Position numbers and translations under genes: made by a program. Positions 1 through 15,338 of a stretch of DNA of 64,000 bases are shown one piece after another. Source of the DNA: Chloroflexota bacterium (lineage in GTDB: Bacteria; Chloroflexota; Dehalococcoidia; Lucifugimonadales; JADFKI01). The notes beneath the pieces were generated by a model, which worked only from the letters and a program-made list of their open reading frames with translations, searched no databases and had not been told where the DNA came from. The DNA lies in contig JAQBUT010000001.1 in NCBI GenBank assembly GCA_027623195.1, positions 32,001 through 96,000 on the forward strand, given 5' to 3'. Positions within the stretch are counted from its first letter, which is position 1. Every line of letters starts with the position of its first letter.

Positions 1-2
1 AC

Positions 3-548
3 ACACTTGACGAGCTAACGGCTCAGTCCAAGAAATGGATTCAGCCTGTGTTGGATACCCGTGAGATGGTGGAGGCGGCCGGTCTGGCGGTGGAGGTAGT
101 GAGCGTTGGCGGCACGCACAACTACGAGATCGCGGCGACGATGTCTGGCGTTACAGAGGTGCCAGCAGGCAGCTACGCCCTGATGGATTACAGGTACAGC
201 GCTACACGGCCCGGACTTCGCCCTGCAGCCAAGGTGATGGCCACGGTGACGAGTCTGCCAGAGCCGGGCAGGGCAATCCTGGACACGGGAAAGAAGGCCA
301 CTGGAGACGACCTGGGCTTCCCTGCATTGGAGGATTTTCCGAATGTGCAGGTTGCCAGCCTAAGCGCCGAGCACGGCAACATCACATGGGATGAAGGCAA
401 CAACCCAAATTTATCCATTGGTCAGAAGGTTTGGTATACGCCTTTGGAGATCGGCGCTACTGTTAACGTCTACGACTACATACAGGCTGTGCGCAACGGC
501 AAACTGGAGTCGGTGTTGGGCATCTCGGCCCGCGGTCGCTATCGCTAG
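3..548 (+). CDS. DSD1/D-threonine aldolase-like PLP enzyme (alanine racemase fold), 5'-partial
   Basis: Frame open from the window start; VSVGGT...TEVPAGSYALMD and SAEHG motifs; paralog of the next gene. Confidence 0.85.
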   Translation, partial: TLDELTAQSKKWIQPVLDTREMVEAAGLAVEVVSVGGTHNYEIAATMSGVTEVPAGSYALMDYRYSATRPGLRPAAKVMATVTSLPEPGRAILDTGKKATGDDLGFPALEDFPNVQVASLSAEHGNITWDEGNNPNLSIGQKVWYTPLEIGATVNVYDYIQAVRNGKLESVLGISARGRYR

Positions 549-625
549 GCCCAACGAACTCATTCGATAAGCCATCAACCAAGAATCGACTTAAACTATG
601 CCAATCCGCACGAAGGACAAAAAAT

Positions 626-1726
626 ATGGATAACTATAGGCCCCTGATGGGAACCGGTATCGCAGATCTGGATACGCCGTGTTTGATGGTGGACCTGGAC
701 TCGCTAGAGCACAACTATGACCTAATAGCTAGGACTTACAGCGACACCGAGTGCAAGATGCGGACCCACACGAAGAACTTGAAAAGCCCATTGCTGGCCC
801 ACATGCAGATCCGGGCAGGCGGTACTGTCGGCGGCGTATGCACCGCTAAGGTCTCCGAGGCTGAGGTCATGGTGGAGGGCGGCATTGACGACATTCTCAT
901 TCCCAACCAGGTCGTGACCAGGGACAAGATTGTCCGGCTGTGCACTTTGGCCAAACGAGCCAAGATGATGGTGGCCGCCGACAACGCCGACAACATCCGG
1001 GAGATATCAGAGATAGCCCAGGAGCACGGTGTGAAGATAGGTATCGTCGTCGAGGTGGACACGCAGATGCACCGCGCCGGCATACGCAACACTCAGACCG
1101 GCGTAGACCTGGCTCGCGTGGCCACGGATGCCCCCGGCATCGACTTTCGCGGGGTGATGTGCCACCAGGCGGCCCAAGGCTCCCCGGACCGGGAGACGCG
1201 ATTCATCGAAGGACGTCGGCTTATTCAAACGGCGCTGGACGTTAGGGACGCCATAGTTGCCGACGGCATGCCTGTGGAGGTCGTTTCTGCGGGCGAGACA
1301 TGGACCTACGACCTGTGTGCAACCATGCCAGGAGTCACCGAGGTCGAGGGCGGGACGTATGCGCTGATGTCGCACGGCTACGGCTACATGGAGGACTTCG
1401 AGTACGCAGCCACGATACTCGGCACGGTCATTAGCACCCCAAGGCCCGGCGTCGCCATCGGGGACACAGGGTCGCGATGCCTGGGCTCACCCGGCGGCGT
1501 GCTACCCCAGTTGGTTGGCATTTCCAACGTAGGCGTGGACTCGCTGCAGGAGGAGCATATCGTCCTGCGCTCTGAGGGAGACATGCCGCTCAAGGTCGGC
1601 GACAAGTACCAGTTGATCTCAGGTCAGCAGGACATTATGGTCAACCGCTGGGACCAGTACATCGCCATGCGCAATAGCTCGGTGGAGGCCGTGTGGGATA
1701 TACCTGGTAGAGGTTGCCACAACTAA
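626..1726 (+). CDS. DSD1/D-threonine aldolase-like PLP-dependent enzyme
   Basis: LDTPCLMVD, RTHTKNLK (PLP Lys), CTAKVSEAEVM, VEVDTQMHRAG motifs. Confidence 0.88.
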   Translation: MDNYRPLMGTGIADLDTPCLMVDLDSLEHNYDLIARTYSDTECKMRTHTKNLKSPLLAHMQIRAGGTVGGVCTAKVSEAEVMVEGGIDDILIPNQVVTRDKIVRLCTLAKRAKMMVAADNADNIREISEIAQEHGVKIGIVVEVDTQMHRAGIRNTQTGVDLARVATDAPGIDFRGVMCHQAAQGSPDRETRFIEGRRLIQTALDVRDAIVADGMPVEVVSAGETWTYDLCATMPGVTEVEGGTYALMSHGYGYMEDFEYAATILGTVISTPRPGVAIGDTGSRCLGSPGGVLPQLVGISNVGVDSLQEEHIVLRSEGDMPLKVGDKYQLISGQQDIMVNRWDQYIAMRNSSVEAVWDIPGRGCHN

Positions 1727-1767
1727 TTCGGATTGCGGTTAATCTCATAACTCGATATGCAGAAATT

Positions 1768-1807
1768 AAAAGAAAAGGGCAGGCCAATTGGTCTGCCCTT
1801 TTCTTTT
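1768..1807. terminator. Bidirectional intrinsic terminator
   Basis: AAAAGAAAAGGGCAG..CTGCCCTTTTCTTTT inverted repeat between convergent genes. Confidence 0.85.
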
Positions 1808-1823
1808 TGGATAATGTTGAAGC

Positions 1824-2573
1824 CTAATGAAAGTACTTGCCCGAGTCGATGACCAACACCTGTCCGGTGATGCTATCAGTACGGCAGAACTCCACCACCT
1901 GACGGGCGATATCGTCCTTGTCCGCGCCTCTCTTGAGTAGCGATGCCACCCTGGAAACGGCCTGGTATTCCGGGTCCAGGTTCGAGGTGGCCCTGGTGCC
2001 GTCCAGATAACCTGGGGCAATGCAGTTGACAAGAACCTCTGGCGCAAGGGCGACGGCCATGCACTTCGTCAGATGGTTGAGGCCTGCCTTGGACACGGCA
2101 TAGGGTATGGAAGAGCCTGTAGGGCTCAGGCCTGCGATGGACGATATGTTGACGATTCGCCCAGACCCCTGTTGCTTCATGGCAGGAGCTACGGCTTTAG
2201 AGGCAAGCATCGGCCCCGTAAGGTTGATCGTGAGAATCTTGTTCCACTCCTCCAGTGTCATCGCGTCCAGGTCGTCAAAGGGGATCCACTTGTTGTAGGC
2301 CGCGTCGTTTATCAGGATGTCGATGCGCCCAAATCGCTCCAGGACCTGCGGTACCAGTGCCCCTACCGACGCAGGGTCGGAAACGTCGCAATGCATGGCC
2401 TCGGATTCGACTCCAGCCTCTTGCAGCTTGTTCGCGACCTCTTCGGCCTGGTCTTTGCTCTGGGCGTAGACCACGGCAACATTGCTACCCGCCTCCGCCA
2501 GCGCGTGACAAATTCTCTGACCTAAGCCTCCGTTACCGCCTGTAACGATTGAGACTGTTCCTTTTAATTCCAT
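1824..2573 (-). CDS. SDR family oxidoreductase (FabG-like)
   Basis: TGGNGGLG, NDAA, YAVSK motifs; start moved to MELKG after an RBS-like AAGGGGG. Confidence 0.92.
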   Translation of the reverse strand: MELKGTVSIVTGGNGGLGQRICHALAEAGSNVAVVYAQSKDQAEEVANKLQEAGVESEAMHCDVSDPASVGALVPQVLERFGRIDILINDAAYNKWIPFDDLDAMTLEEWNKILTINLTGPMLASKAVAPAMKQQGSGRIVNISSIAGLSPTGSSIPYAVSKAGLNHLTKCMAVALAPEVLVNCIAPGYLDGTRATSNLDPEYQAVSRVASLLKRGADKDDIARQVVEFCRTDSITGQVLVIDSGKYFH

Positions 2574-2706
2574 CAGTGCCCCCTTTACGTTTTTGAGACA
2601 TACACAATGATAAACGATGCGACCGCGAAACAATGGTTCGCTCTGAGATAGTATATTGATGAAGATCCAAATCAAGCCCAAGCATGCGCAAGGGAATATA
2701 TGAAGT

Positions 2707-3321
2707 ATGACCTTCAGCAAATGGCTGTTTGCCACCTGGTACGACCTCCTGAACGCCGGCGTGGAAGGCCGCGTCATCCCATACCGCAAGGAGACTGCGG
2801 GTAAGACATGGGGTGACGTTCTGGAGATCGGCGGAGGCACAGGCGCCAACATACCTTACTATCCTGACGACACCCAGCTGACTTTCATCGAGCCTGACGG
2901 ATACATGGTGAAGAAGCTGACGCGCACGGCATCGAAAATTGGCCGAGAGGTGCGGATAGTGCAAGAAGCAGGCGAGAAATTGCCCTTCGACGACGGCAGC
3001 TTCGACTGCGTTGTGACGACGCTGGTACTGTGCATGGTCCGCGACCACGATAGCGTCGTGCGAGAGGCCAGGCGTGTGCTTAAACCGGGCGGGGCATTCT
3101 TCTTCTACGAGCACGTCGTTTCTCCGCGACGTACGGGGCACTGGTGGCAGAACAAGCTTAACCCCACTTGGAAATTCCTGACCACCGGCTGCAACCTCAA
3201 CCGCGACCTGACGGCGACCATTCACAATGCTGGATTCAGCCAGGTGGAGATGCAAAGCTTCGATCTCTCGGTGGGGCTCCCGATTACCATACCCAACATC
3301 GTGGGCGTCGCCAGGGTATAA
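2707..3321 (+). CDS. Class I SAM-dependent methyltransferase
   Basis: VLEIGGGTG, LPFDDGSFD, RVLKPGG motifs. Confidence 0.9.
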   Translation: MTFSKWLFATWYDLLNAGVEGRVIPYRKETAGKTWGDVLEIGGGTGANIPYYPDDTQLTFIEPDGYMVKKLTRTASKIGREVRIVQEAGEKLPFDDGSFDCVVTTLVLCMVRDHDSVVREARRVLKPGGAFFFYEHVVSPRRTGHWWQNKLNPTWKFLTTGCNLNRDLTATIHNAGFSQVEMQSFDLSVGLPITIPNIVGVARV

Positions 3322-3370
3322 TCAGGCCGCTTGCTCCACGGCGGGCGAACCTACGGAATAGGAGCCACCA

Positions 3371-3793
3371 ATGGACTTCGAAGACGTCCGGCCATTTATG
3401 GAATCGCACCACCGGGGTGTCATCGGTACACGCCGGGCCAACGGGGCCACCCATTCGAGCATAGTGGCGTGCGGCGCGTTTCAGGGCAAAGCTGCATTTG
3501 TATCGGTCTACCCCAGATCGGTGAAGATCAGGAATATCCGACGCGACCCTACGTGCACCATCCTTTGCGTCGACGACAACTGGCGCAGCTACGCAGTGGT
3601 GGAGGGGCAGGCCCAGCTATTCGACTACAGCAACACCGATGCTGCGGAGATACGCCAGATGCTGCGAGACGTGTATAGGGCATGCAGCGCTACGGAACAT
3701 CCAAACTGGAACGAGTTCGACCAGGCCATGATCGACCAAAAAGCGGTGGTGGTCCTGGTGCCACCGGAGCAGGTGTACGGCATGCTAAGGTGA
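3371..3793 (+). CDS. PPOX-class (probable F420-dependent) split-barrel oxidoreductase
   Basis: GTRRANG..H, K.RNIRRDP, YAVVEGQA pattern; RBS AGGAG. Confidence 0.8.
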   Translation: MDFEDVRPFMESHHRGVIGTRRANGATHSSIVACGAFQGKAAFVSVYPRSVKIRNIRRDPTCTILCVDDNWRSYAVVEGQAQLFDYSNTDAAEIRQMLRDVYRACSATEHPNWNEFDQAMIDQKAVVVLVPPEQVYGMLR

Positions 3794-3856
3794 CATTTTG
3801 ATTGGTCATGACACCAGTCTAGGATGCGAAATGACAACGCCCGTTACGGAGAGAAG

Positions 3857-4210
3857 ATGGCCGACCTTATAAGCTTTGACATAGACGGTACGCTGGAGTT
3901 CGGGGACCCGCGCGGCAGCATAACCATGGATATGGTCCGCAAGGTGCAGGCCTTGGGCATCTGGGTCGGCAGTTGCTCGGACAGGCCCGTCGGTTACCAG
4001 CAGCAGTTGTGGGACAGGCACGAAATGAACGTGGACTTCACTGTGGTGAAGAACAGGTTGGATGACGTGAAGGCAGAATTCCAGGCCGACAGTTTCCTTC
4101 ACATCGGAGACACGGACATGGACGAGTACTTCGCAGGGAAGTCAGGATTCCAGTTCCTGCTCGTAGACTCCTTACCGTTCCTAAGCTGGACGGAGCAGTT
4201 GTCGCTTTAG
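3857..4210 (+). CDS. Small HAD-family hydrolase
   Basis: SFDIDGTL and HIGDTDMD motifs. Confidence 0.8.
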   Translation: MADLISFDIDGTLEFGDPRGSITMDMVRKVQALGIWVGSCSDRPVGYQQQLWDRHEMNVDFTVVKNRLDDVKAEFQADSFLHIGDTDMDEYFAGKSGFQFLLVDSLPFLSWTEQLSL

Positions 4211-4214
4211 GCCA

Positions 4215-4631
4215 TTACGCCGGCCTGAACTTCACCAGCGTTACGTCAGCCGTAACGTCATCAAAGACCGCAGTCACTGGCATATCCACATGCACGTCCG
4301 CGATGGGGCAGTCCACCACGTTGGAGATCATACGGGGCCCTTCATCCAGTTGGATGATTGCGTAAATATACGGCACATCCTTCATAAACGCGCGGTTCAC
4401 CGACTGCTCAATGACCGTGAACGAATACACCCGGCCTACGCCTCCGGATTCCGACCACGACAGGTCCGCAGAAAGACATTTAGGGCACCTCTCTCTGGGA
4501 TAAAAGAATGTCGTCGAACAGCCATTGCACCGGGGCAACACCAATTTATGGCGCTTCGCAGCATCCCAGAAGGGTTGCGTAAATTCGGCATTGGCAGCCA
4601 CAGGTAACGGCTTCGTGTATTCGGAAGTCAT
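4215..4631 (-). CDS. DUF35 Zn-ribbon/OB-fold protein (thiolase partner)
   Basis: PFWDAA, CNGC..YPRERCPKC, GRVYSFT, PY..AIIQLDEGPRM. Confidence 0.92.
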   Translation of the reverse strand: MTSEYTKPLPVAANAEFTQPFWDAAKRHKLVLPRCNGCSTTFFYPRERCPKCLSADLSWSESGGVGRVYSFTVIEQSVNRAFMKDVPYIYAIIQLDEGPRMISNVVDCPIADVHVDMPVTAVFDDVTADVTLVKFRPA

Positions 4632-4667
4632 TGCTTTGACCTTTAAGTTCTGAACGTCTTGCCTTGG

Positions 4668-5822
4668 TTAGAGTGAGTTCTCGGACCCGAGAACCAGCGA
4701 GCACATCTCGCTCGCCGTGCCGCCTCAACCATTCACCATGCATAAGTCGTTTTTAGGCACCTGCCGTCCGCCGGCCTTGCCCATGATCTGTCGAGCGCCT
4801 TCCACGACGTGACGGAACCCGCCTGCCAGTCCGGGCTGACCGCCGGAAAGCTGGCCGCCGTCAGTATTAACCGGAAAGGTCCCCTTGTATGTTGTATCGG
4901 TCGATTCGAAAAACGGACCAATCTCGCCCTTCTTAACGAACCCTGCATCTTCGAGGCACACGGCCACGAGAATGGTGTATCAGTCGTAGAATTCGGCAAA
5001 CTCTATGTCTGGGGGCGTGTAGCCTGACATCTCGAAGGCCCGGGCCGCTGATCCCGAAACCGGCGTGACGGTTATGTCGTCGCGCTGCCATATATTAGCC
5101 TCCGCCTGCTCCATTCCAACGCCCAAAACGTAAGCGGGCTTGTTTGGCAAAGACTTTGCCCTCTCAGGTGTCGTAATGATAAGCGCGGCCGCTCCGTCGC
5201 ATGGCATGACCGACTCCAAAAGCTTTAAAGGTCGATTGATGTACCGAGAGTCCAGCACGTCATCCACTGTAATGGTCTGCCCAAAGAAAACAGCATTTTC
5301 GTTAGTCAGGGCATTAAAGCGCTGGTTCACAGCCAGTTTGGCCATCTGCTCCTCGGTGGTGCCGTACTCGTGCATGTGCCGCTGGTACATCAGGCCATAG
5401 CCTGTGTTTGCCCCCGGCGCCATGCCGTACGGCTCCTCCCATTCCGAGCGCACGCCCGGCGCAGGAGTGCCCATACTGGCCCTGTATTCTCGAGAGTTGC
5501 CCATCACCACCAGAACGGTGTCGCACAGGCCGCCATTAATGGCCAGCGTAGCCGCTACGGTAGCAGTTGCCCCGCTGGCCCCTTGCATGGAAACGCCAGT
5601 TGCGAATCTCGGCTTGATGTCCAGGTATTCGGCCATAGCAGCCGGAGTCCCGTAGCCACCGTCGGTCACCAAGCCATTGATGTCGGCCTTGGTCAGCCCG
5701 GCATCCTCGATAGCCAGTTGGGCCGCCTCAGCACAAAGGCCGTACATAGTTCTGTCGGGCCGCACCCGTTTGGTTGGCACTTCGCCAATGCCGACTATTG
5801 CAGCTTTACCGCGCACTGTCAT
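4668..5822 (-). CDS. Thiolase-family (SCP2/Ltp2-like) protein, 384 aa if two in-frame TGA codons (4980-4982, 4725-4727) are read through; candidate selenoprotein
   Basis: ORFs 4980-5822 and 4725-4967 share one frame; it reads AEFYD*YTILVAVCLED...NTDGGQLSGG...CMVNG*GGTASEMCSLVLGSENSL then TAA. Confidence 0.8.
4695..4717 (-). promoter_or_regulatory. SECIS-like hairpin after the second in-frame TGA
   Basis: CGGCGAGC-[GAGATGT]-GCTCGCTG; loop starts 15 nt after the TGA and begins with G (folded by eye). Confidence 0.55.
4946..4974 (-). promoter_or_regulatory. SECIS-like hairpin after the first in-frame TGA
   Basis: CATTCTCG-T-GGC-[CGTGT]-GCC-T-CGAAGATG; loop starts 17 nt after the TGA, with G at loop position 2 (folded by eye). 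Confidence 0.55.
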
Positions 5823-5995
5823 AGTTTTGCTCTCTTATTGGATTTCAGGGGTAATTTCATGGGCGTCTTTGACATATGGCGCATTTTACTAAAATGGACG
5901 CTGATTTCAAGCCAGGGGCAACCAGGGGCCAAGGATTTCCGGGCTATGTTATCCTGTAGGCCATTCAAAAGGCCTACAAACAGGAGATTGTCACC

Positions 5996-7156
5996 ATGAG
6001 CTTCTTCCCACTAACCCAGGAGCAACAGGACTGGAAAGACCGTGCCGCCGCGATTGCAGACAAGGAGCTTGCGCCTCGCGCAGAGCAGACCGACAGAGAA
6101 CGCAAGTACCCCAGAGAATCGCTGGACGCACTAAGGGACGCCGGGTTCTGGGCGTTGCGAGTGGATAAACAGTACGGAGGCCAGGGGGCCGACCTTTTGA
6201 GCACGGTGCTGGTCGTGGAAGAGCTAGCCAAGCGGTGCCCGTCCACAGCCATGTGCTACAAGATGCACCTTGAGGCGTCAGAGGTAATCAACCGCATGCC
6301 GACGGATTACCAGGTGGAGAACTTCGTGAAGCCCATGGCCAGGGGCGAGGTCTTCACCACCGTGGCAGGCTCAGAGACCTGGAGAGACGGCGACAACTGG
6401 ACCACCAGCCGAGAGTTCTCGGTCGCCAATAAAGTACCGGGCGGCTACAAGCTTAACAACGTACGCAAGTCCTACGTCACGTCATCGGAGCACGCCACTC
6501 ATTACTTCTTCCTGTGCCGCATGAGCGAAGAGGCTACCGCTGACCAGACTAGCCTTCTATTCGTGGAGCGCGACAAGATCGAGTGGGAGCTTCTAGAGGA
6601 ATGGAACGGCCTGGGACTACGAGGTAACGCCAGCTCCCCCATGCGCTTCAACGGGGTTGTGCCGGAAGAGAACAGAATTGGCGGCGAGAACACTGGTATG
6701 GCTGAGGCCGGTGGCGTATTCGTGCCGGTGCTCGGCCTGACCTACGCGGCCGCCTATCTGGGCACGGGCTCAGGCGCATTCGACCTAGCTAAACTGGAGG
6801 GCGACCGCAGATTTGCCAGCGGCTCCCGACGCATGGACGCGCCGGTGAATCAGCGACGCATGGCAGAGCTATCAGTTCAGATCGAAGCCGCCCAGACCAT
6901 GCTGCACGCCGCAGCCGCTACGTTCGACGCGGGCAAACTGGGATCGCCGCTGCCCATAATGCAGGCCAAGGTGCTCTGCTCTGAGACGGCGGTGAACGTA
7001 ACGCAGGAACTCATGACCATGTTCGGCGGCACGGCCTTCGCAGGACGCATGCCCATGGAGCGGTACTTCCGCGACGCCCGCGCAGGCATGATTATGGCGC
7101 TGCCAAACGACGGGACCTACGACACCATCTCGAACCTGCTGTTCCCAGCGAAGTAA
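5996..7156 (+). CDS. Acyl-CoA dehydrogenase family protein
   Basis: YGGQG, EELAK, W.GLGLRGNAS, FGG...MERYFRDAR motifs. Confidence 0.92.
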   Translation: MSFFPLTQEQQDWKDRAAAIADKELAPRAEQTDRERKYPRESLDALRDAGFWALRVDKQYGGQGADLLSTVLVVEELAKRCPSTAMCYKMHLEASEVINRMPTDYQVENFVKPMARGEVFTTVAGSETWRDGDNWTTSREFSVANKVPGGYKLNNVRKSYVTSSEHATHYFFLCRMSEEATADQTSLLFVERDKIEWELLEEWNGLGLRGNASSPMRFNGVVPEENRIGGENTGMAEAGGVFVPVLGLTYAAAYLGTGSGAFDLAKLEGDRRFASGSRRMDAPVNQRRMAELSVQIEAAQTMLHAAAATFDAGKLGSPLPIMQAKVLCSETAVNVTQELMTMFGGTAFAGRMPMERYFRDARAGMIMALPNDGTYDTISNLLFPAK

Positions 7157-7259
7157 GAGTGCGCGGGAAAGGGAGATCTTCCCGCAACTCGTTTCCACGT
7201 AAGACACAGATAAGCGAACCCCTCTCAGTGTGCAAAAAGGGGTTCAGAAATTACATGTC

Positions 7260-8297
7260 TCAATGAGCCTTGAGGATCGACTTGAACGATTGGGCCGTGA
7301 ACTCCAACCACCGGGACGCATCTGTGCGGTGGTCATCTTGGCGCTCATCTGTCTTTCCAAATACCCACATGGCATTTGACAGTTGCCGGGCAGCTATAAA
7401 TATGTCCAGATATTCCAACTGTTCCACTGGAATGGGTCGATGCCTGGTGTAGCCACGAAATAGGTCGTCGACCAGGGTAGGGTGGCCGTTCTGCAAAAGG
7501 CAAACGGCTATGTCGTAAATCTTGTGGCCAAAAGCGCTGTCGTCAAAGTCAATTACCCTGGTCTCATTGGCTGAAAACAGGATATTCCCCGTGTGAAGGT
7601 CCGCGTGAATCAGCCCGAAAACATCCGGCCCGAACCCTAATTCTTCCATGGCCTGCCGGACCCTCTCTCCCATATCGTGGAAAAGTCGGGCGTAGGGCGA
7701 GGGAAGCGAAGACCATGTTTCCTGCGGACTCACGACGAATCCCGCACTATCCCCCAAAAGTCCATCCCAGTCCAGTCGGCGTCTGGTGAACGCAGGGGAG
7801 GGCGACCAGCCTTCCGCGTGGCTATGCAATTGCCCCATGACCTCTCCAATGGCCGTCAGGTGGGTGGGACTGGTTTTCTGGTACGCCCTGCCATTCATCC
7901 AGCGCAACAATGAACAAACGCGCGGCTCTGGAACATCCGGCGATGACGCGGTGGTCATAAGGTCACCCGACAAGGTGGGTACTGGCTCCGGAACGGCCAA
8001 ATCAATGTCACGACGCAATGCATCCAGCCATTCCAGCTCTGAGGCGATGGAAGCGGCAGACTGATAGCCGGGCCCGTGAAGCTTCAGCAGATACCGCCCC
8101 TGCACGAACCGACCTGCCTCAGCCTTGCCACCGGATCGGTCATTCACGCTTACCCGAAACGTTGCGTTCTCGTGAGACTTGATTAGCCTTACGCTCGCGC
8201 CCTTCAGTCCGTACGACTTCAGTGCTGTCTTGGCCAGAGTGTGCAGGCGTCGCACCTTACCGGTGTGAGTCAGGTTCTCAAAAGGTACTCTGGCCAA
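7260..8297 (-). CDS. Phosphotransferase (APH / type II homoserine kinase-like)
   Basis: HENATFRV, LIHADLHTGNIL, VIDFDD motifs. Confidence 0.88.
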   Translation of the reverse strand: MARVPFENLTHTGKVRRLHTLAKTALKSYGLKGASVRLIKSHENATFRVSVNDRSGGKAEAGRFVQGRYLLKLHGPGYQSAASIASELEWLDALRRDIDLAVPEPVPTLSGDLMTTASSPDVPEPRVCSLLRWMNGRAYQKTSPTHLTAIGEVMGQLHSHAEGWSPSPAFTRRRLDWDGLLGDSAGFVVSPQETWSSLPSPYARLFHDMGERVRQAMEELGFGPDVFGLIHADLHTGNILFSANETRVIDFDDSAFGHKIYDIAVCLLQNGHPTLVDDLFRGYTRHRPIPVEQLEYLDIFIAARQLSNAMWVFGKTDERQDDHRTDASRWLEFTAQSFKSILKAH

Positions 8298-8455
8298 ATT
8301 TCACACCACCGCCTTTGTCCGGATATCAGAATTTCTCCCGTCATTCGCCAAGAAAGGCTTCTGATGCGGGGACCAACGACCCGAACGGGTCACTATTTCA
8401 CATCACACAGGCCCAATTTGCCGTCCATCTTGCTCACGGACGCGTCACATTGCCG

Positions 8456-9034
8456 CTAAGGCTTAACCCACGTCTCCGACCATGCAAGACAAGAGGTACT
8501 GCTCTGCTTGTCGCCGCGCATTTCGGATCGGGTCACGCCCTTGGCTACCATACCGTTGAGCGTCATCTGCGCCTTGCGAGCCGGGATGAAGCAGCTGTAA
8601 ACACCATGAGGCCTGCCTTCCACTGTGCCTGCTGCGGCGGTGAGCATGTACGGTTCATAGAAGTCATACCAGGAGAGAGCGATAGACTCCTCCTCTGACT
8701 CCACTGTCTCCGTCCAGAAAGAGCGATGGTCGCCTGAATGGTTAAAGACGGCATCAGTCACCGGCACATCGTCGTCGGCGAACTCCGGATAGAGGTGAGT
8801 CTCGATCTCGCCCTGTAGCCAACGGGCCAAAGCAATATTATCGGAGTAAATGCGCACCTCGTCGTTGGTGAGATCGCTCTTCAGGTACAGGACATGTCCA
8901 GCCCCTGCGGGGCTCAAAAGTATGCGCCAGTGGCTTGAACGGGTCAACTGAGGTCCGTCCTGGCCATCGTGCAACCGTATAAATGAGTTCTCTCCGGTGA
9001 GCACGACTCTATTGGGATCAGTGGGATTTACCAT
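8456..9034 (-). CDS. Hypothetical protein
   Basis: 192-aa ORF with RBS GAGGAG and host-like codon use; no family recognised. Confidence 0.75.
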   Translation of the reverse strand: MVNPTDPNRVVLTGENSFIRLHDGQDGPQLTRSSHWRILLSPAGAGHVLYLKSDLTNDEVRIYSDNIALARWLQGEIETHLYPEFADDDVPVTDAVFNHSGDHRSFWTETVESEEESIALSWYDFYEPYMLTAAAGTVEGRPHGVYSCFIPARKAQMTLNGMVAKGVTRSEMRGDKQSSTSCLAWSETWVKP

Positions 9035-9146
9035 TTTAATCTCCTCGCTTCATTTGGGTTCAAGTGGCTCTGGCTGTCTTGTGTTGTATCATCTTAGCAG
9101 CGCACCAACGGCGAAGCCACCAGACATATTCCCGGAGGAAATCAAG

Positions 9147-9671
9147 TTGGTTAACTGGCAAAATAACCCGGACCTAAGCCACATGAGCGACAACGACTAC
9201 CATGCACAACAGGTTCTTAGCCTAACGGAGCAGATTGACGCAGAACCTGAAAATCCCCGGAACTACTTCCTGCGAGGGAACGCCTATCTGGATGGCTCAA
9301 ACTACGCCTCAGCACTCGCCGACTACTCGAAGGCCATCGAATTGGACCCGGACGACTCTGTGCTATTCAACAATCGAGGCATCGCCTTCCGTTGTCTGAT
9401 GGAAACCGATAGAGCCATCGAAGACTACTCCAAGGCTCTCGAAATGAACCCGCAATACAGGGACGCTTACAACAACCGCGGCATGGCGCTATCCGATAAG
9501 TCCGACTACGAGGCCGCTATCACCAATTACACTCAGGCCATCGAACTGGATGACAAATTCTGGTACGCCTACAACAACAGGGGAATGGCGCTGTGGGCGG
9601 TAGGCAAACGAGATGAGGCGGTGGCAGACTACGAAAAGGCCAAGGCATTGATGGGCCTCAACCCCGGCTAG
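9147..9671 (+). CDS. Tetratricopeptide repeat protein
   Basis: Repeated Y/FNNRG...A..DY.KA.E..P units; TTG start after GGAGGA (alternative ATG at 9183). Confidence 0.88.
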   Translation: MVNWQNNPDLSHMSDNDYHAQQVLSLTEQIDAEPENPRNYFLRGNAYLDGSNYASALADYSKAIELDPDDSVLFNNRGIAFRCLMETDRAIEDYSKALEMNPQYRDAYNNRGMALSDKSDYEAAITNYTQAIELDDKFWYAYNNRGMALWAVGKRDEAVADYEKAKALMGLNPG

Positions 9672-9773
9672 ACGGCTTAATCTCGTGTTAAAGACGACCA
9701 GTCGCCATTGAACTGGACGCCACCTGTAGTGTATATTTCATGCGCGTTTCCACCCTGATTTCGGCTGATATAA

Positions 9774-11366
9774 ATGACGGACTTCGCCCAGGTCTCGGTT
9801 ACCCCTGACCAACTCACCATCGTCCCAGCAGGGCAGGCCCGCTCTTCGATTTTTATCCAGAACTCCAGCACCGTTGTCGATGTATTTACCATCGAAGTGC
9901 AGGGGTTAGACGAATCGTGGGTGGAGCTTTCCGTTAACAGCGTCTCGTTGTTCCCCGGAGACAGCGCCACCAGCGACCTCACGTTGAGTGTCCCCAAGAC
10001 CAGCGGTGCCAAGGCAGGTACTTACCCCCTCACCATAAAGGTAAGCTCCCGCAAGGACCCGTCGATCAGCATGGACGTCGAATGCGCGCTGGAAGTCGAG
10101 CCTTATTATGATGTGAGCGCGGAGCTTAATCCCCAGCAATTGACAGGGGCTGGAGGTCAGTTCACGGCCTCTTTGACGAACTCCGGCAACACCGAGATGG
10201 AGATCGGCCTTAATGGCACGGACCCTCAGGCGGCGCTGCACTTTACATACTCAAGGCAAACGCCTCGATTGGCTCCCGGTGAGACGCAAGAGGCAACTGT
10301 AACCGTGACGGCACGGCAGCAGCCGTTACGCGGATTTCCGAAAACGTACCCTTTTCAGATAAGGGCCACTGGTCCACTGAACACTGCGCGACCATTAGAA
10401 CTGCATGGTTCACTGACCGTTCCCCCCAGGCTTCCAAGATGGGCATTTCCAGCGGCCATCGCCTGCGTGGTAGGACTTATCGCGATTATCGCATTGGCAA
10501 TCACATTTGGCGGCAGGAGAGATGACGCTCCGGTAGCCTCGCCTATCTTGATTACCGCTGGTTCTCCACTAGCCGGGGCCATGGATTTAAGCTCCGGACA
10601 ATTGCGGAGCTTCGAGGTGCTCGTTGAAGAGCCAGGACTCCTGATTTTGCAGGTGCAGTGGGATGTCAAAGGCAACGGACTTCGGGTTAAATTCGCCGCG
10701 TCGGAGTCGGACCAGGCGTTCATACAGACGTTACGGGCTGCGGGCCTACTCACGACTTTTGTCGATGAAGAGCTGCTGATCCCATCTGGCGAATACAGCA
10801 TTCCCCTTGGACAGGCCTACGTGTCCAAGGCGCTATCCGTGTCGTTCCAAAACAAGACTAGCAGCGATACAAGTAGTACGTTTAGCCTGTCTTTTCAACC
10901 AGCATCCGCTGTGACCCCGGAAGCAACGGCTACGGCTATCCCTGTGCTTCTGCCGTCGGCCACGTCCACACCATCACCTATTGACTCGCCCACACCATCG
11001 CCTACAGCATCTGCGACGGCCACGGCTACCGTTACGCCAACGCCCGCGCCCAGACGAACGCTGAAGATCGAGCCCGTGCTGCCAACCGCCGGGAAGATTG
11101 TCGTTTCACCGCAGGCCAACCGGGACGGCACATACGAAGACGGTACGTCTATCACCGTCTCGGCACAGCCTGCAAGAGGGTGCTCGTTTGGCGGGTGGTC
11201 CGGCTCCATGACGACACCAGATGAGAAGCTTAATTTCGTGATCGACAGCAACGTAGCGCTTAAGGCAACATTCTGGTGCCTGATTCCCATAGTCACACCC
11301 ACACCTACGCCTGGCTTAATCATATTTCCGACCTTTACGCTCCCCCCACTAAAGCTTCTGCCTTAG
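9774..11366 (+). CDS. Membrane-anchored protein: Ig-like (COG1470-type) domains, TM helix, Pro/Thr linker, InlB-B-like repeat
   Basis: SLFPG/NSGN Ig-like repeats; hydrophobic span AAIACVVGLIAIIALAI; TPSP repeats; Y..GT.ITVSAQP..G..FGGWSG. Confidence 0.7.
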   Translation: MTDFAQVSVTPDQLTIVPAGQARSSIFIQNSSTVVDVFTIEVQGLDESWVELSVNSVSLFPGDSATSDLTLSVPKTSGAKAGTYPLTIKVSSRKDPSISMDVECALEVEPYYDVSAELNPQQLTGAGGQFTASLTNSGNTEMEIGLNGTDPQAALHFTYSRQTPRLAPGETQEATVTVTARQQPLRGFPKTYPFQIRATGPLNTARPLELHGSLTVPPRLPRWAFPAAIACVVGLIAIIALAITFGGRRDDAPVASPILITAGSPLAGAMDLSSGQLRSFEVLVEEPGLLILQVQWDVKGNGLRVKFAASESDQAFIQTLRAAGLLTTFVDEELLIPSGEYSIPLGQAYVSKALSVSFQNKTSSDTSSTFSLSFQPASAVTPEATATAIPVLLPSATSTPSPIDSPTPSPTASATATATVTPTPAPRRTLKIEPVLPTAGKIVVSPQANRDGTYEDGTSITVSAQPARGCSFGGWSGSMTTPDEKLNFVIDSNVALKATFWCLIPIVTPTPTPGLIIFPTFTLPPLKLLP

Positions 11367-11445
11367 TACCAATCATCCAGAACCAACCAGACAGGCCAAT
11401 TATCGTTGTAACTGATGATTAGCGAATTTTGCCGAATATTCCACC

Positions 11446-11481
11446 TTGACAGAGACAAATGTTCTGCAATACATTTGTTCT
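11446..11481 (+). promoter_or_regulatory. Sigma70-like promoter overlapped by two LexA-like boxes
   Basis: TTGACA at 11446; GAGAC-AAAT-GTTCT (11452-65) and AATAC-ATTT-GTTCT (11468-81). Confidence 0.4.
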
Positions 11482-11523
11482 AATCCTTTTCAAATCTAAA
11501 CCACATCCTCTGAGGAGAACGTA

Positions 11524-11877
11524 ATGGCAAATCCGATAGTTCATTGGGAAATAGCAGGGAGGGACGCTGCCAAACTGCAGGAGTTTTACGGCGGCCTGTT
11601 CGATTGGAAAATAAACGCCATGGAGAATATGGGCGGATACCGGATGGTTGAATCTGGCGAGAGTGGCCTAACCGGCGGCCTCATGCAAACGGAAGGGGAC
11701 ATGCCACCAAACTACGTCATATTCTACGTTCAAGTGGACGACTTACAGGCCTCTCTGGACAGCGCCGTGGCTTTAGGAGGAACGGCAGTAATGCCTCCGA
11801 CACCAATTCCCGGGGTAGGGGCATTCGCTATATTCGCCGATCCTGAGGGCAACAACATAGGAATGTTCAAGGGTTAA
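11524..11877 (+). CDS. VOC family protein
   Basis: IVHWEI, FYGGLFDW, FYVQVDD, FADPEGN motifs. Confidence 0.92.
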   Translation: MANPIVHWEIAGRDAAKLQEFYGGLFDWKINAMENMGGYRMVESGESGLTGGLMQTEGDMPPNYVIFYVQVDDLQASLDSAVALGGTAVMPPTPIPGVGAFAIFADPEGNNIGMFKG

Positions 11878-12154
11878 TACGGCAGACGAGAACGACATCA
11901 GTTCTTGTTAACAACACTGAGGGGGAAGAGAGAATGGCGGGATGCAAGGGACCCTTGGCAAAGACAGCGTTGTACAGAGTAGAACCGGCTGCACAGCATA
12001 GGGTGAGGCACATTGGCCCTGTTGGGTCTGACGGAGCGCTACTCAAGGAAGATTGCAGGGCCAGCCGAAAAGCCAGACGTCGCCTGACCTCGCCGGCACA
12101 CAGGCGGGCGCTGCGGTGCATGCTAGGTATCTAAAGATGTTGGAAGGACAGAAC

Positions 12155-12583
12155 ATGATAAGACACGTTGCGGGTATCGCAGAAGTTGTTGAGGACGTTG
12201 GGTCTGCCGTCAGGTACTACACAGATGTCCTCGGGCTATCTGTAGAACACCAGGATGGTTCGGGCTACGCAGTGGTGGATGTGCCCGGCGTACTTCATTA
12301 CGGCTTATGGTCGCGTAGGGCAGCAGCCGAGGCCACCTTTGGCGACCCGCAGGCAGCGGACCGTATCCCCCTTGGCTTCAGCGTTGGTTTCGAGGTCGAT
12401 AATGTGGAAGATGCCAATCGAGCGATGCTAGCGGCGGGAACGGACTTTCCTCAGGCCCCAAAAGAGGAGCCATGGAAGCAGGTGACCAGTCGCTTCATTT
12501 CCAGGAGCGGCGCGCTGTGCGAAATATCCAAAACGCCGTGGGCGAGGCGGATCACCCAGCAGATGCGGGCCTCCGAAGAGTAG
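12155..12583 (+). CDS. VOC/glyoxalase family protein
   Basis: VEDV..AVRYY.DVLGL, GFEVDNV, EEPW.Q..SRF. Confidence 0.85.
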   Translation: MIRHVAGIAEVVEDVGSAVRYYTDVLGLSVEHQDGSGYAVVDVPGVLHYGLWSRRAAAEATFGDPQAADRIPLGFSVGFEVDNVEDANRAMLAAGTDFPQAPKEEPWKQVTSRFISRSGALCEISKTPWARRITQQMRASEE

Positions 12584-12631
12584 CCTTTCAATTAGGGGGC
12601 ACCCACTCTGCCGCCTAGGGCGAACTGTCGG

Positions 12632-14227
12632 TTACCAGCCCACAGCACAGCCATCATTACGTGGCTCGCTGCCGCCCCTAAGCACCCCGGTCTCCGAATC
12701 CCTTTCGATGATTTGCCCACCACCGAAATACAACGGATGCGGCTCGTGTATCTCCGTCTTGTGGCCTTTGGACCTTAGCTCGTAAGCCACCATGCCGGAC
12801 ACCATAGACTCCAGTCCTATGACGCCCTCAGATGGCCTATAGCTAAAGCGTGGCGCGTTCAGGGCTTCCTGCGGGTCAAGGCCAAAGTCGATCATGTTGA
12901 CCAGCGCCTGCAATTGACCCTGCGCCTGCTGAACCGTTCCCATTACGCCGTAGCTAAGCCACAACTCGTCGCCTTTGGTGGCCATGCCCGGAATGAGCGT
13001 GTGATACGGGCGCTTGTTGGGTTCCAACACATTTGGGTGCTGAGCATCCAGCGAGAATGAAGCCCCTCGACTCTGCAAGGCCATGCCGGTCCCTGGCACC
13101 ACCAGCCCCGAGCCAAAATCCGAGTAGACGCTGTTGATAAGGGAGCAGGCATTGCCTTCGCCGTCCACCGCCGTAATGTACACCGTGTCGCTCTTGATAT
13201 TGGGATCACCAACCTCAATATTAGCAATGGCGGCGTTCCGATGAATTAGTTTTCGCCTCTCCTCGGCGTATGCCTTGGAGATCAGCCTGCTAGTCTCAAC
13301 CTTCATTTTGGCGGGATCGGTTATGTAATGCATGCCGTCCGTCATAGCCAGGCGTATGCACTCGATCATGTGGTGGAAGGTCTCGCTCTTCTGGAAGCCT
13401 GTGCCAGCCAGGTCAAACCCCTCCGCTATGTTCAGGGCCATGAGTAGGTTGACGCCCTGGTTATTGGGCGGGCACTGCCAGCAAGTCACCCCTCGATAGT
13501 CTGTCGAAATAGGGTCCACCCAGTCGGCGGAGTGGCCTGCCATGTCGTCAGCCGTGAGCCAACCACCCAGGCCTTGCACAAAATCTGCGACCCTTTTGGC
13601 CAGCGGCCCTTTGTAGAAGGCTTCGGCTCCTCCCTCCGCGATGGCGCTGAGCGTGGTGGCAAGCTCAGGTAGTTTCAGAAGCTCACCGGCCTTGGGCGCT
13701 CTACCATTCAAAAGCAGCTCGCCGCCAGATGGCTGTGCCTTCAGCCTCGACACGCCCTCCTGCCACTGCATGCTTATTACCTCGGTTACGGGATATCCGT
13801 CCGTGGCGTAGGCTATGGCGGGCTTCAAAACCTCGGAAATAGGCATTTTGCCAAAGCGGTCCAACAGCGCCTGCCAGCCGCTAACGGCACCAGGCACCGT
13901 GACGGAGTACGGGCTGTTATCCGGAATCGAGCGCATACCCTTTTCGCGTAACTCGTCCGCCGATGCCGCCGCAGGGGAGTGGCCGCTGGCGTTGAGAGAA
14001 TAGACCTTCTTTTCCGATGAGTTGTAAACCAGCGAAAAAAGGTCCCCACCCGCGCCGGTGGAGTGAGGCTCCACCACATTGAGGGTGGCCGCTGCAGCTA
14101 CCGTCGCGTCGACAGCGGTGCCGCCGTTCATCAACATACGTAGTCCAGCCATGGCCGCCAACGGTTGACTTGTAGCAACCATACCCTTGGTAGCCATAAC
14201 TGCTGATCTTCTAGAATTGAACCTCAT
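12632..14227 (-). CDS. ggt: Gamma-glutamyltransferase
   Basis: GMVATSQPLA, GGDLF, VTVPG, nucleophile DTVY, KRPYHTLIP. Confidence 0.95.
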   Translation of the reverse strand: MRFNSRRSAVMATKGMVATSQPLAAMAGLRMLMNGGTAVDATVAAAATLNVVEPHSTGAGGDLFSLVYNSSEKKVYSLNASGHSPAAASADELREKGMRSIPDNSPYSVTVPGAVSGWQALLDRFGKMPISEVLKPAIAYATDGYPVTEVISMQWQEGVSRLKAQPSGGELLLNGRAPKAGELLKLPELATTLSAIAEGGAEAFYKGPLAKRVADFVQGLGGWLTADDMAGHSADWVDPISTDYRGVTCWQCPPNNQGVNLLMALNIAEGFDLAGTGFQKSETFHHMIECIRLAMTDGMHYITDPAKMKVETSRLISKAYAEERRKLIHRNAAIANIEVGDPNIKSDTVYITAVDGEGNACSLINSVYSDFGSGLVVPGTGMALQSRGASFSLDAQHPNVLEPNKRPYHTLIPGMATKGDELWLSYGVMGTVQQAQGQLQALVNMIDFGLDPQEALNAPRFSYRPSEGVIGLESMVSGMVAYELRSKGHKTEIHEPHPLYFGGGQIIERDSETGVLRGGSEPRNDGCAVGW

Positions 14228-15219
14228 TTATCTAATGACCTTCCTTGAAATGTTCCATTTAGCGCTGCCTCTCTAAGCGCCGAGTCTATCGACACTACCG
14301 GCGGCCCCTTATCCGTCAGGCACACCTGCACCTTCTGCCCCGGACGTATGCCGAATGTGCGCTCGCCGTCCAAGGCTACAGTGCATGGGCTTAGATCGAC
14401 GTCCGCAGTCTCGCCGAATTCCATTGTAGACCAGCGGGCGATATTTACAGTCGAAATCATACCAGGCGCTATCGGGGCCAAGACCGTTGTCCCGCCGGGG
14501 CCGATATGAATGCGAATACCGCGTTCGTCTGACATGTACGTTGGATTAAGTTGGGCGCCCACGGCCGACAGACCTATGCTAGAAGGCTCGGCCCGCGTAA
14601 GGAATAGTTCGTCCACAGTGTCCAGATTCCATATTGCTCTGGAGCCCACGAAGCGCTCTTTGGATATGGCTACGTCTACGAGAGCGATGTCCTTTATTTC
14701 GCCATCCACCGAAATCTCAAGGAGCTTGCTGGCAACAGTAGAGTTTTCCAAGGAGACCTTTCCACATGCGACGACGCCAGCGGCAAGTCCTGCTATCGTC
14801 CCTTCCACCATTTCCGGGAACACGTTGTTGGTTCCTGTAGAAACAGGCACAAGTGGTACGTTTCTCGATCCTTTGGCCACCGCCCTGTTGGTGCCGTCGC
14901 CGCCCAACGTAATCAGGCAACCGACCTCCATGTCAGCCATCATTCCGGCCGCACGGGTAGAGTCTAGCTCGTCATTGAAGACTGGCATTTCGAGGAATTC
15001 GACGGAGAGGGAAAAGTGAGTGTTATCCAGAGCGCCTCTGCCCAGGGCAGACATGTCTGGCATCATGACCACGCGCTCGACGCCCACTGCGTCAAGGCCG
15101 GCCAGGATACGTTTGAGGATGTTAATCTTTTCCTGATTGGGGACGAATCGCCCGTGAGCCACGAGCCGGCGTATGTCTTTACCAGCGGCTGGGTTTGCGA
15201 TTATGCCTACTGTGGCCAA
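14224..15219 (-). CDS. ATP-NAD kinase family, AcoX-like protein
   Basis: GIIANPAAGKDIRRLVA, LGGDGTNR, STGTNNVFP. Confidence 0.88.
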   Translation of the reverse strand: MATVGIIANPAAGKDIRRLVAHGRFVPNQEKINILKRILAGLDAVGVERVVMMPDMSALGRGALDNTHFSLSVEFLEMPVFNDELDSTRAAGMMADMEVGCLITLGGDGTNRAVAKGSRNVPLVPVSTGTNNVFPEMVEGTIAGLAAGVVACGKVSLENSTVASKLLEISVDGEIKDIALVDVAISKERFVGSRAIWNLDTVDELFLTRAEPSSIGLSAVGAQLNPTYMSDERGIRIHIGPGGTTVLAPIAPGMISTVNIARWSTMEFGETADVDLSPCTVALDGERTFGIRPGQKVQVCLTDKGPPVVSIDSALREAALNGTFQGRSLDK

Positions 15220-15338
15220 GGGTTAATTTCCTTCGCTCTCGGAGGGTTGCGTGAACCAGGACGCATCCTCCAGAACTGCGTCCAGCGCGCGGCGATCGAA
15301 AGCAAGTCTCAGGAACATCATGGAGCGAATCGCCATAA

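Follow-up and report, generated by a model that had tools for sequence, protein, structure and literature searches.

Is a gene whose reading frame is crossed by two TGA codons a broken thiolase, or does it encode an enzyme in which both codons are read as selenocysteine (Sec)? This question is raised by a locus in a stretch of 64,000 nucleotides (nt) from a Chloroflexota bacterium (assembly GCA_027623195.1, contig JAQBUT010000001.1, positions 32,001 to 96,000; hereafter the window), in which a thiolase-fold gene at 4668..5822 of the minus strand contains two in-frame TGA codons. An initial annotation, prepared from the nucleotide sequence, had regarded this gene as a candidate double-Sec enzyme. 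The analysis of the gene, its relatives and its RNA elements described here points with high probability to a single functional selenoprotein gene whose UGA codons are read as Sec, and which encodes a Sal-type, DUF35-associated enzyme likely to act in the C-C cleavage of a 3-hydroxyacyl-CoA.

One reading frame and two TGA columns

Direct translation from the ATG at 5822 to the TAA stop at 4668-4670 yields one register of 384 sense codons, which is uninterrupted apart from TGA codons 281 and 366. No frameshift was found, in agreement with the initial annotation, which had joined the fragments 4980-5822 and 4725-4967 into a single gene; both fragments are present in the list of open reading frames (ORFs). 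The first TGA (codon 281, 4980..4982, minus strand) stands in the context AEFYD-TGA-YTILVAV and gives the motif Y279-D280-U281-Y282, and the second (codon 366, 4725..4727, minus strand) stands in the context CMVNG-TGA-GGTASEM and gives the motif N364-G365-U366-G367-G368. The two codons are 255 nt apart. TGA also serves as a true stop in the window, as had been claimed when a reassigned code was dismissed: it ends 12 of the 46 ORFs of at least 200 aa (TAA 18, TAG 16), and most of those ending in TGA continue for only 0-30 codons past their stop. A second candidate for TGA read-through at 38104-38937 (minus strand), with 211 further codons, was rejected, since the added sequence is rich in Arg, Val, Leu, Gly and His, as the antisense reading of a genuine gene typically is.

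Gene callers split or cut this gene, and its relatives are plainly named 'thiolase family protein', as could be the case for a dead thiolase-like gene that has acquired two nonsense mutations, or for an assembly with two miscalled bases. Assembly error, which the initial annotation had itself allowed for, is opposed by the Logan contigs from four runs (two studies), which concur at both codons with no listed difference at either TGA. One variant Logan contig carries a synonymous change at place 4977, in the codon right after TGA281, and retains the TGA.

The relatives of the gene bear most directly on the idea of a dead gene. They were collected by a six-frame search of 41 relatives' genomes, then by a phylum-wide search of 401 genomes and a wider contig scan. 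In the 41 genomes, in-frame TGA is present at each of the seven top-scoring places (423-858 bits): two codons each in the genome studied here (G000), in G001 (94% identity), in G003 (77%) and in G002 and G004 (60%), and one codon in each of two copies in G032, where column 281 is Cys in both. The weaker paralogues in these genomes (at most 41% identity) have zero in-frame TGA. Upon translation, the TGAs of the relatives fall in the same two columns, 281 and 366. The search of 401 genomes added G085, with four copies whose states at 281/366 are Cys/Sec, Sec/Sec, Ala/Asn and Cys/Sec, as well as forms without Sec, namely Cys/Asn in G268 and G412 and Ser/Ser in G180, G387 and G189. The wider contig scan contributed 33 further loci, all in metagenome-assembled genomes (MAGs) of SAR202, Dehalococcoidia or Chloroflexota.

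Pooled over 47 readable loci, the states at the two columns are Cys/Sec in 25, Sec/Sec in 13, Ser/Ser in three, Cys/Asn in two and Ala/Asn in one, with two loop variants and one contig end; two of the loci (L025 and L054) appear to be the same stretch. Column 366 is TGA in 38 of these loci, which are spread over several families of Dehalococcoidia, and column 281 is TGA in 13, Cys in 30, Ser in three and Ala in one. All internal stops are TGA, with no case of TAA or TAG, and the Sec forms all end their own frame with TAA or TAG. Unlike the Sec forms, the Sec-free Cys/Asn orthologues L046 (G268) and L048 (G412) terminate with TGA. The initial annotation had considered two independent nonsense mutations unlikely, and the recurrence of TGA at the same two columns bears this out; the codons are kept across genera.

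A quick maximum-likelihood tree, built with the two columns masked, places Sec at 366 as ancestral to a clade of 40 rows, with losses in L052 and in the pair L083/L086, whereas the Sec/Cys state at 281 has changed at least five times. In the sub-clade of L083 and L086, the loop VNG-GSPS replaces VNG-U-GGT, and the UGG/CxG-like motif is wholly lost. In G085, which is 100% complete, the Sec/Sec and Ala/Asn copies (L051 and L052, C6:336594-339510) form a tandem about 600 nt apart, the other two copies being L045 and L053. The Ala/Asn member looks like a recent duplicate that has lost both Sec, and the tandem is a natural experiment on what Sec contributes.

Furthermore, purifying selection was found downstream of each TGA when the ratio of non-synonymous to synonymous change (dN/dS) was computed there, a check put forward at the outset. 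The 84 codons that separate the two TGAs hold 38 synonymous differences between G000 and G001 and no non-synonymous one (dS 1.30), and six other pairs give a dN/dS of 0.03-0.11 over the same segment. Past TGA366, five of the seven pairs have a dN/dS of 0.12-0.17, one pair is not computable and one reaches 1.09 on six differences. The synonymous rate itself falls to about 0.15-0.66 after TGA366, compared with 1.0-2.9 elsewhere, and to 0.16 over the hairpin that follows this codon, compared with 1.3-1.6 elsewhere; this drop is as expected of an RNA element that overlaps the codons. Because the TGAs are conserved at the same columns, a dead gene is ruled out, and pseudogene and assembly error taken together retain next to no probability.

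Public databases present the family in a different form. Among the best 120 of 1192 matching database proteins, 77 stop exactly at ...VNG (column 365), all of them with Cys281, and 35 stop exactly at ...YD (column 280), which means that 112 end at one of the two TGA columns and only about four are full length. Where names are given, they are 'thiolase family protein' or 'acetyl-CoA acetyltransferase'. Since 112 of these 120 closest entries are cut at TGA codons, the mis-annotation of the family is systematic. The 365-residue form listed in databases might also be taken as a real product. In that case UGA366 would be a leaky stop, the short form would be the main product of the Cys281/UGA366 genes, and selenium would switch the enzyme from an inactive to an active state; Sec insertion in bacteria does compete with release factor 2. 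However, the short form would be without the oxyanion-hole Gly368 and the last beta-strand (residues 372-379 of the structural model described below), the 18 codons after the TGA are in frame in 38 of 38 loci, and they show the low dN/dS given above for five of seven pairs. A switch of this kind is considered very unlikely.

Hairpins and the selenocysteine machinery

If the two codons are to be read as Sec, each of them should be served by an RNA element of the Sec insertion sequence (SECIS) type. After TGA366, a SECIS-like hairpin at 4695..4717 (minus strand) can be drawn in two registers, with either 9 bp and the loop AGAUG or 6 bp and the loop AUGUG, the second of which is common to the whole family. 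At this place, a hairpin centred on an invariant ATG codon is present in all 32 distinct U366 sequences. In register 48, which pairs columns 15-21 with columns 27-33, 75.4% of the cells are paired, compared with 26-54% when the register is slid. At pair 20-28, 20 sequences have A-U and eight have U-A, pair 21-27 is found as G-C (12 sequences) or C-G (three), and both the covariation score and the 14 double-change cells of this register were reached by 0 of 500 shuffles. In addition, 8 of 10 U366 sequences have a hairpin whose minimum free energy (MFE) is lower than that of synonymous shuffles (frac<=0.07).

A second hairpin, GUUCUCG-GGUC-CGAGAAC (7 bp, loop GGUC), follows just downstream at 4677..4694 (minus strand). 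Only the G000-like clade has retained it (alignment columns 34-51); the tandem copy L052, which is Sec-free, has it in broken form, and other sequence stands in its place in the G002-like clade. It could be a part of the SECIS, or an element that couples translation to the downstream DUF35 gene.

The SECIS-like hairpin after TGA281 (4946..4974, minus strand) comprises 10 pairs in three short helices with the 5-nt apical loop CGUGU; its upper helices begin 10 nt after the TGA, and it is weaker than the TGA366 hairpin. Across 12 distinct Sec forms, 91.7% of the cells are paired, compared with 41-53% when slid, and pair 16-30 is found as G-C, G-U and C-G. A position-specific test compared the number of pairs with that expected under synonymous recoding with each gene's own codon usage. 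The Sec forms realise 9.27 of the 10 pairs, compared with 6.58 expected, and 7 of 11 reach frac<=0.05, including lineages beyond the one used to draw the structure. The Cys forms, on the other hand, have 6.17 pairs at the same place, compared with 6.15 expected, and 0 of 23 reach this level. Similarly, synonymous codon identity over the 12 codons after column 281 is 0.61 in the Sec forms and 0.415 in the Cys forms.

Both hairpins begin 10-12 nt after the UGA, both have G-U in the loop, and GUG occurs in both loops. Each TGA is followed by a SECIS-like hairpin that is kept by selection and to which SelB is predicted to bind. The arrangement resembles that of selenoprotein genes with a SECIS inside the ORF, such as fdhF and selD, in which a hairpin downstream of the UGA carries G/U in its apical loop at about 16-37 nt, homologues have Cys in place of Sec, and selABCD is required. 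It differs from them in having two Sec codons, each with its own hairpin, in its non-redox scaffold, and in the near absence of Cys counterparts of Sec366.

The initial annotation had tied its proposal to the presence of the Sec machinery, and all of its components were found in the genome. G000 encodes a tRNA-Sec with the anticodon UCA (63.4 bits) together with selB (311 bits), selA (554 bits) and selD (385 bits), all of which score over the family cut-offs. The selD gene has one in-frame TGA itself: it is a selenoprotein gene (L019, C46:6726-7649, minus strand) with the motif SCAG-U-ASKF, and a 9-bp hairpin with the loop GUG begins about 25 nt after the UGA. When 11 other genomes were compared, the six with TGA forms had tRNA-Sec in 6/6 and selA in 5/6 cases, and neither selA nor tRNA-Sec was found in G268 and G412 (97-98% complete), which carry the Cys/Asn forms. 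G180, G387 and G189 possess Sec machinery and carry the distant Ser/Ser forms.

These data also address the possibility that the two codons are read through as Trp, Cys or Gly, by near-cognate decoding, by a suppressor tRNA or following a lineage-wide change of the code. The identity of the inserted residue is deduced from sequence, and column 366 of the non-Sec relatives is not Cys, both of which leave some room for this explanation. Nevertheless, TGA terminates a good part of the long ORFs of the window, a selected hairpin lies at SECIS distance from each TGA, all six further genomes with TGA forms have tRNA-Sec, and Cys and Asn stand at the two columns in G268 and G412, where selA and tRNA-Sec are missing. 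Moreover, column 281 is only TGA or Cys within the clade, in spite of its repeated switches on the tree. Read-through with a residue other than Sec is thus extremely unlikely, and both TGAs are very probably Sec codons.

A putative retro-aldolase-type active site

The nature of the enzyme follows less from database models than from structure. The only Pfam match is Thiolase_C_1 (155.8 bits), and no NCBIfam model matches at its cut-off, the best thiolase model giving 295.8 bits vs 421. The closest solved structure by sequence is 9myr_A (E 1.2e-80, 39% identity), and an AF2 model of the protein (pLDDT 89.1, pTM 0.91) is likewise matched best by 9myr_A in Foldseek (TMq 0.91), then by 4U4E and 6OK1 (TMq 0.89). 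9MYR is CtSal, a bile-acid side-chain retro-aldolase of Comamonas testosteroni, together with the DUF35 domain of Shy (PMC12329534). The same paper assigns catalytic roles to Tyr302 and Cys304 of its YDCY motif, the variants C304A, C304S and C304H being inactive, and proposes that Gln347 and Gln352 stabilise the Cys thiolate; the oxyanion hole is formed by the Gly391 backbone and the Gln161 side chain, and Gly occupies the thiolase nucleophile site (PMC12329534).

Residues were matched by HMMER alignment, with a 24-residue offset between the deposited 9MYR chain and the numbering of the paper. Y279 aligns with Tyr302, U281 with Cys304, Y282 with Tyr305, U366 with Thr389 and G368 with Gly391, and the glutamines of GGQ and GQP, which are kept in 16 of 16 aligned orthologues, align with Gln347 and Gln352. 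Tyr279 (codon 4986..4988, minus strand) corresponds to the catalytic base Tyr302 of CtSal and to Tyr294 of TcLtp2; it is invariant in alignment A3, and Tyr is present in 118 of 130 full-length representatives obtained at 50% clustering. Column 281 is Cys in 49 of these representatives. At the position of the thiolase nucleophilic Cys stands Gly81 (codon 5580..5582, minus strand), where CxS reads GAS (QGASG); Gly is found there in 119 of the representatives, and likewise in CtSal. The hallmarks of thiolases proper, the Cys of CxS and the His of GHP, are replaced in GAS and GQP, and both the missing N-terminal nucleophile (SMQGASG) and GQP in place of GHP had been noticed early on and are seen in the translation.

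The likeness to CtSal comprises the Gly at the nucleophile position, the YDCY-type motif with Tyr and Cys/Sec, the two Gln, the oxyanion Gly and a DUF35 partner, whereas Cys304 and Thr389 are replaced by Sec and Gln161 by Ala. The partner gene here (4215..4631, minus strand) lies 36 nt downstream on the same strand, and its 138-aa product combines a zinc ribbon (C-x2-C-x10-C-x2-C) with an OB fold (Pfam zf-ChsH2 and OB_ChsH2_C). A homologue is found directly downstream in 47 of 49 related loci, and its product is presumed to be a scaffold subunit. While the DUF35 of CtSal is the C3H1 domain of a MaoC hydratase, the protein here is a free-standing C4 zinc ribbon protein with no adjacent hydratase, and the host is a marine SAR202-type Dehalococcoidia rather than Comamonas testosteroni. 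The steroid side-chain aldolase TcLtp2-ChsH2(DUF35) (PDB 6OK1) also shares the fold, the absence of a nucleophilic Cys and the DUF35 partner, and Tyr294 of its YDHF motif is the residue that aligns with Tyr279. It differs in having His at the Sec281 position, and in that its acid is a second Tyr (Tyr344), which is Leu here within GQPGLAGG.

The earlier idea that two Sec residues supply non-canonical chemistry is upheld, with one refinement: Sec is supported by conservation, machinery and selection, but the protein is built on a Sal/Ltp2-type retro-aldolase scaffold and is not a thiolase proper. Because this scaffold is without a nucleophilic Cys, acid/base catalysis of C-C cleavage, rather than thiolysis, is the most likely activity.

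The places of the two Sec residues nevertheless have counterparts in thiolases. SCP2-type thiolases take their acid/base Cys from HDCF (PMC7682436). In the classical thiolases, CxG lies in the Cbeta4-Cbeta5 loop, its Cys serving as acid/base and its main-chain N contributing to oxyanion hole 2 (PMC6790690), and the structure-based counterpart of CxG in MsTLP1 is NGG (PMC3406046). The Sec-free relatives of the clade read VNG-N-GG, that is, NGG as in MsTLP1. In the AF2 model, Sec366 is found at the end of the second-to-last strand (strands 360-367 and 372-379), two residues before the oxyanion-hole Gly368. The initial annotation had seen HDCF mirrored in YD*Y and had assigned the second TGA to the C-terminal CxGGG loop, and both assignments hold: column 281 is the Cys position of HDCF/YDCY, and column 366, two residues before the counterpart of Gly391, is the place of the classical Cys378. 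Sec would thus occupy both acid/base Cys places of SCP2-type and classical thiolases, since column 281 corresponds to the Cys of HDCF and column 366 to that of CxG in the loop between the last two strands. These two Cys were reportedly described as spatially equivalent by Harijan et al. in 2013. To our knowledge, there is no thiolase in which both positions are filled, and none with Sec, and all true thiolases known to us keep the N-terminal nucleophilic Cys that is Gly here.

A (retro-)Claisen thiolase proper could still be envisaged, with Sec366 or Sec281 standing in for the lost N-terminal Cys as the covalent nucleophile and forming an acyl-selenoester. In favour of this, Sec performs very well both as a nucleophile and as a leaving group, and the oxyanion hole is next to residue 366. 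The full Sal catalytic set (Tyr, Cys/Sec, two Gln and Gly at the nucleophile site) is kept, however, and position 366 acts as an acid/base and not as a nucleophile in thiolases. In addition, close Sec-free relatives with Asn366 retain Tyr279 and Cys281, and residue 366 is therefore not indispensable for the core reaction of the family. A Sec-nucleophile thiolase is unlikely on these grounds.

A coupling analysis of the 130 representatives gave a further view of the two positions. No column shares more mutual information with column 281 than column 366 does, and the reverse is also true (rank 1 of 368, without correction for phylogeny); the sole two representatives with Cys366 both have Ala281. 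This covariation is compatible with a redox switch or a protective pair, in which Sec366 and Cys/Sec281 would form a selenenylsulfide or diselenide that is off in oxidising seawater and resists over-oxidation, a role that would not conflict with acid/base catalysis. SAR202 bacteria live in oxic ocean water, the carriers of the gene are SAR202 MAGs, and most known selenoproteins are redox proteins. In thiolases, both loops line the same catalytic pocket. On the other side, the protein has no CxxU/UxxC motif and there is no thioredoxin-like partner in its neighbourhood, and a dedicated redox function is somewhat unlikely.

As regards the mechanism of the Sal-type selenoenzyme favoured here, UGA281 and UGA366 would be decoded by the SelA, SelB, SelD and tRNA-Sec of the genome, each with its own in-ORF SECIS hairpin, and the protein would most likely act in a heteromeric complex with the product of the downstream DUF35 gene. 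This complex would probably cleave (or form) the C-C bond of a 3-hydroxyacyl-CoA. Tyr279 may serve as the base on the beta-hydroxyl, and Sec281, in place of Cys304 of CtSal, may give a proton to the alpha-carbon or take one from it. Sec366, beside the oxyanion-hole Gly368, may share a proton relay with residue 281, or may form a reversible Se-Se (Se-S) bond with it. On a more tentative level, which we regard as possible but short of probable, a Sec-Sec or Cys-Sec pair from the HDCF and CxG loops could face the alpha-carbon as a low-pKa relay or as a catalytic diselenide/selenenylsulfide, which would make the protein a non-redox acid/base selenoenzyme of CoA-thioester C-C chemistry for the Se-dependent breakdown of recalcitrant organic acids in the abundant SAR202 bacteria of the deep ocean.

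Neighbourhood, counter-evidence and meaning

Apart from the DUF35 gene, nothing is conserved around the locus in the 49 related loci. The other neighbours include an acyl-CoA dehydrogenase (ACAD), an APH-type kinase, an SDR and a small HAD-like ORF, with no steroid-catabolic genes among them. The ACAD gene (5996-7156, plus strand) and the APH-type phosphotransferase gene (7260-8297, minus strand) are convergent and stand beside the aldolase pair, and the divergent ACAD gene is shared only with the closest relative. The arrangement recalls the kinase and ACAD systems for 4-hydroxyacyl-CoA catabolism, namely LvaA/LvaC and ACAD10/11. The small HAD-like ORF (128 aa; 3824-4210, plus strand) is convergent with the DUF35 gene and is found beside the pair in at least 8 of the 49 related loci. 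It was considered as a MaoC hydratase partner and rejected, as its only matches were DUF7124, below threshold, and small HAD-like hydrolases from Chloroflexota, the latter as a lead from the Atlas. At the edge of the window, tandem Ala_racemase_N / D-serine-dehydratase-like genes occupy 3-548 and 626-1726 (both plus strand).

Several observations speak against a Sal-type selenoprotein with two Sec residues. The initial annotation had proposed a check for TGA or Cys at both columns; Cys replaces TGA at column 281 in 30 of the 47 loci, but rarely does so at column 366, where the counterparts are mostly Asn, Thr or Ser. Cys366 occurs in only 2 of the 130 representatives (P0135 and P0251), the others having Asn, Thr, Gln or Ser, and in close relatives without Sec the residue is Asn, Ser, Thr or Gly and not Cys, which is unusual for a Sec site. 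As to the hairpins, the register-44 version (the 9-bp form of G000) shows no covariation above shuffles as a family model (256/500), and RNAalifold finds a weak and different structure in the 32 U366 sequences (-0.96 kcal/mol) and recovers neither register. A few sequences (L045, L081, L051 and L073) use shifted registers, and some non-Sec homologues fold well at the place of the TGA366 hairpin (G189, frac 0.004; G412, 0.072). By plain MFE, the TGA281 hairpin is no more stable than synonymous shuffles in six U forms (z -0.95 to +0.90), so that selection on it appears in the position-specific test only. Two loci (L074 and L075) were matched piecemeal, are not readable in one frame and were excluded from all counts, and L072 stops short of column 366 at a contig end. 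No selA gene was detected in G001 (86% complete), and no RNA run is among the sequencing runs listed for the stretch. With respect to the enzyme, the oxyanion-hole Gln161 of CtSal aligns with Ala (GANTGY), and no MaoC hydratase is present among the ORFs of at least 110 aa in positions 1-16000 of the window.

The statement that thiolases are absent from the classical selenoprotein families agrees with the catalogues searched: there is no thiolase-fold selenoprotein in the 2026 selenoprotein catalogue, and no thiolase in the deep-Sep paper, the BSepDB paper or one BSepDB supplement. Similarly, no publication on a Sec-containing thiolase was found in the literature searched, which was partly judged by titles. 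A selenium-containing thiolase of Clostridium kluyveri was reportedly described by Hartmanis and Stadtman in 1982; its selenium is said to be selenomethionine, incorporated non-specifically, and not UGA-encoded Sec. Of the ten bacteria richest in selenoproteins according to BSepDB, two are Dehalococcoidia MAGs, and nearly all catalogued bacterial selenoproteins are redox proteins with motifs of the CxxU or UxxC type (PMC13188914).

To conclude, the family, which is common in SAR202 bacteria of the ocean, has been cut short by gene callers at its TGA codons and is missing from the 2026 catalogue and BSepDB. If the assignment proposed here is true, the known uses of selenium would be widened to a thiolase-fold C-C lyase, to Sec at acid/base positions, with a second Sec in some members, and to Sec where relatives have Asn or Thr. 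The natural series of Sec/Sec, Cys/Sec, Cys/Asn and Ala/Cys forms asks what Sec adds to proton transfer. The carriers belong to SAR202/Dehalococcoidia, a group associated with the turnover of refractory dissolved organic carbon, and a selenium-dependent catabolic enzyme in these bacteria would, if confirmed, link this turnover to a trace element.

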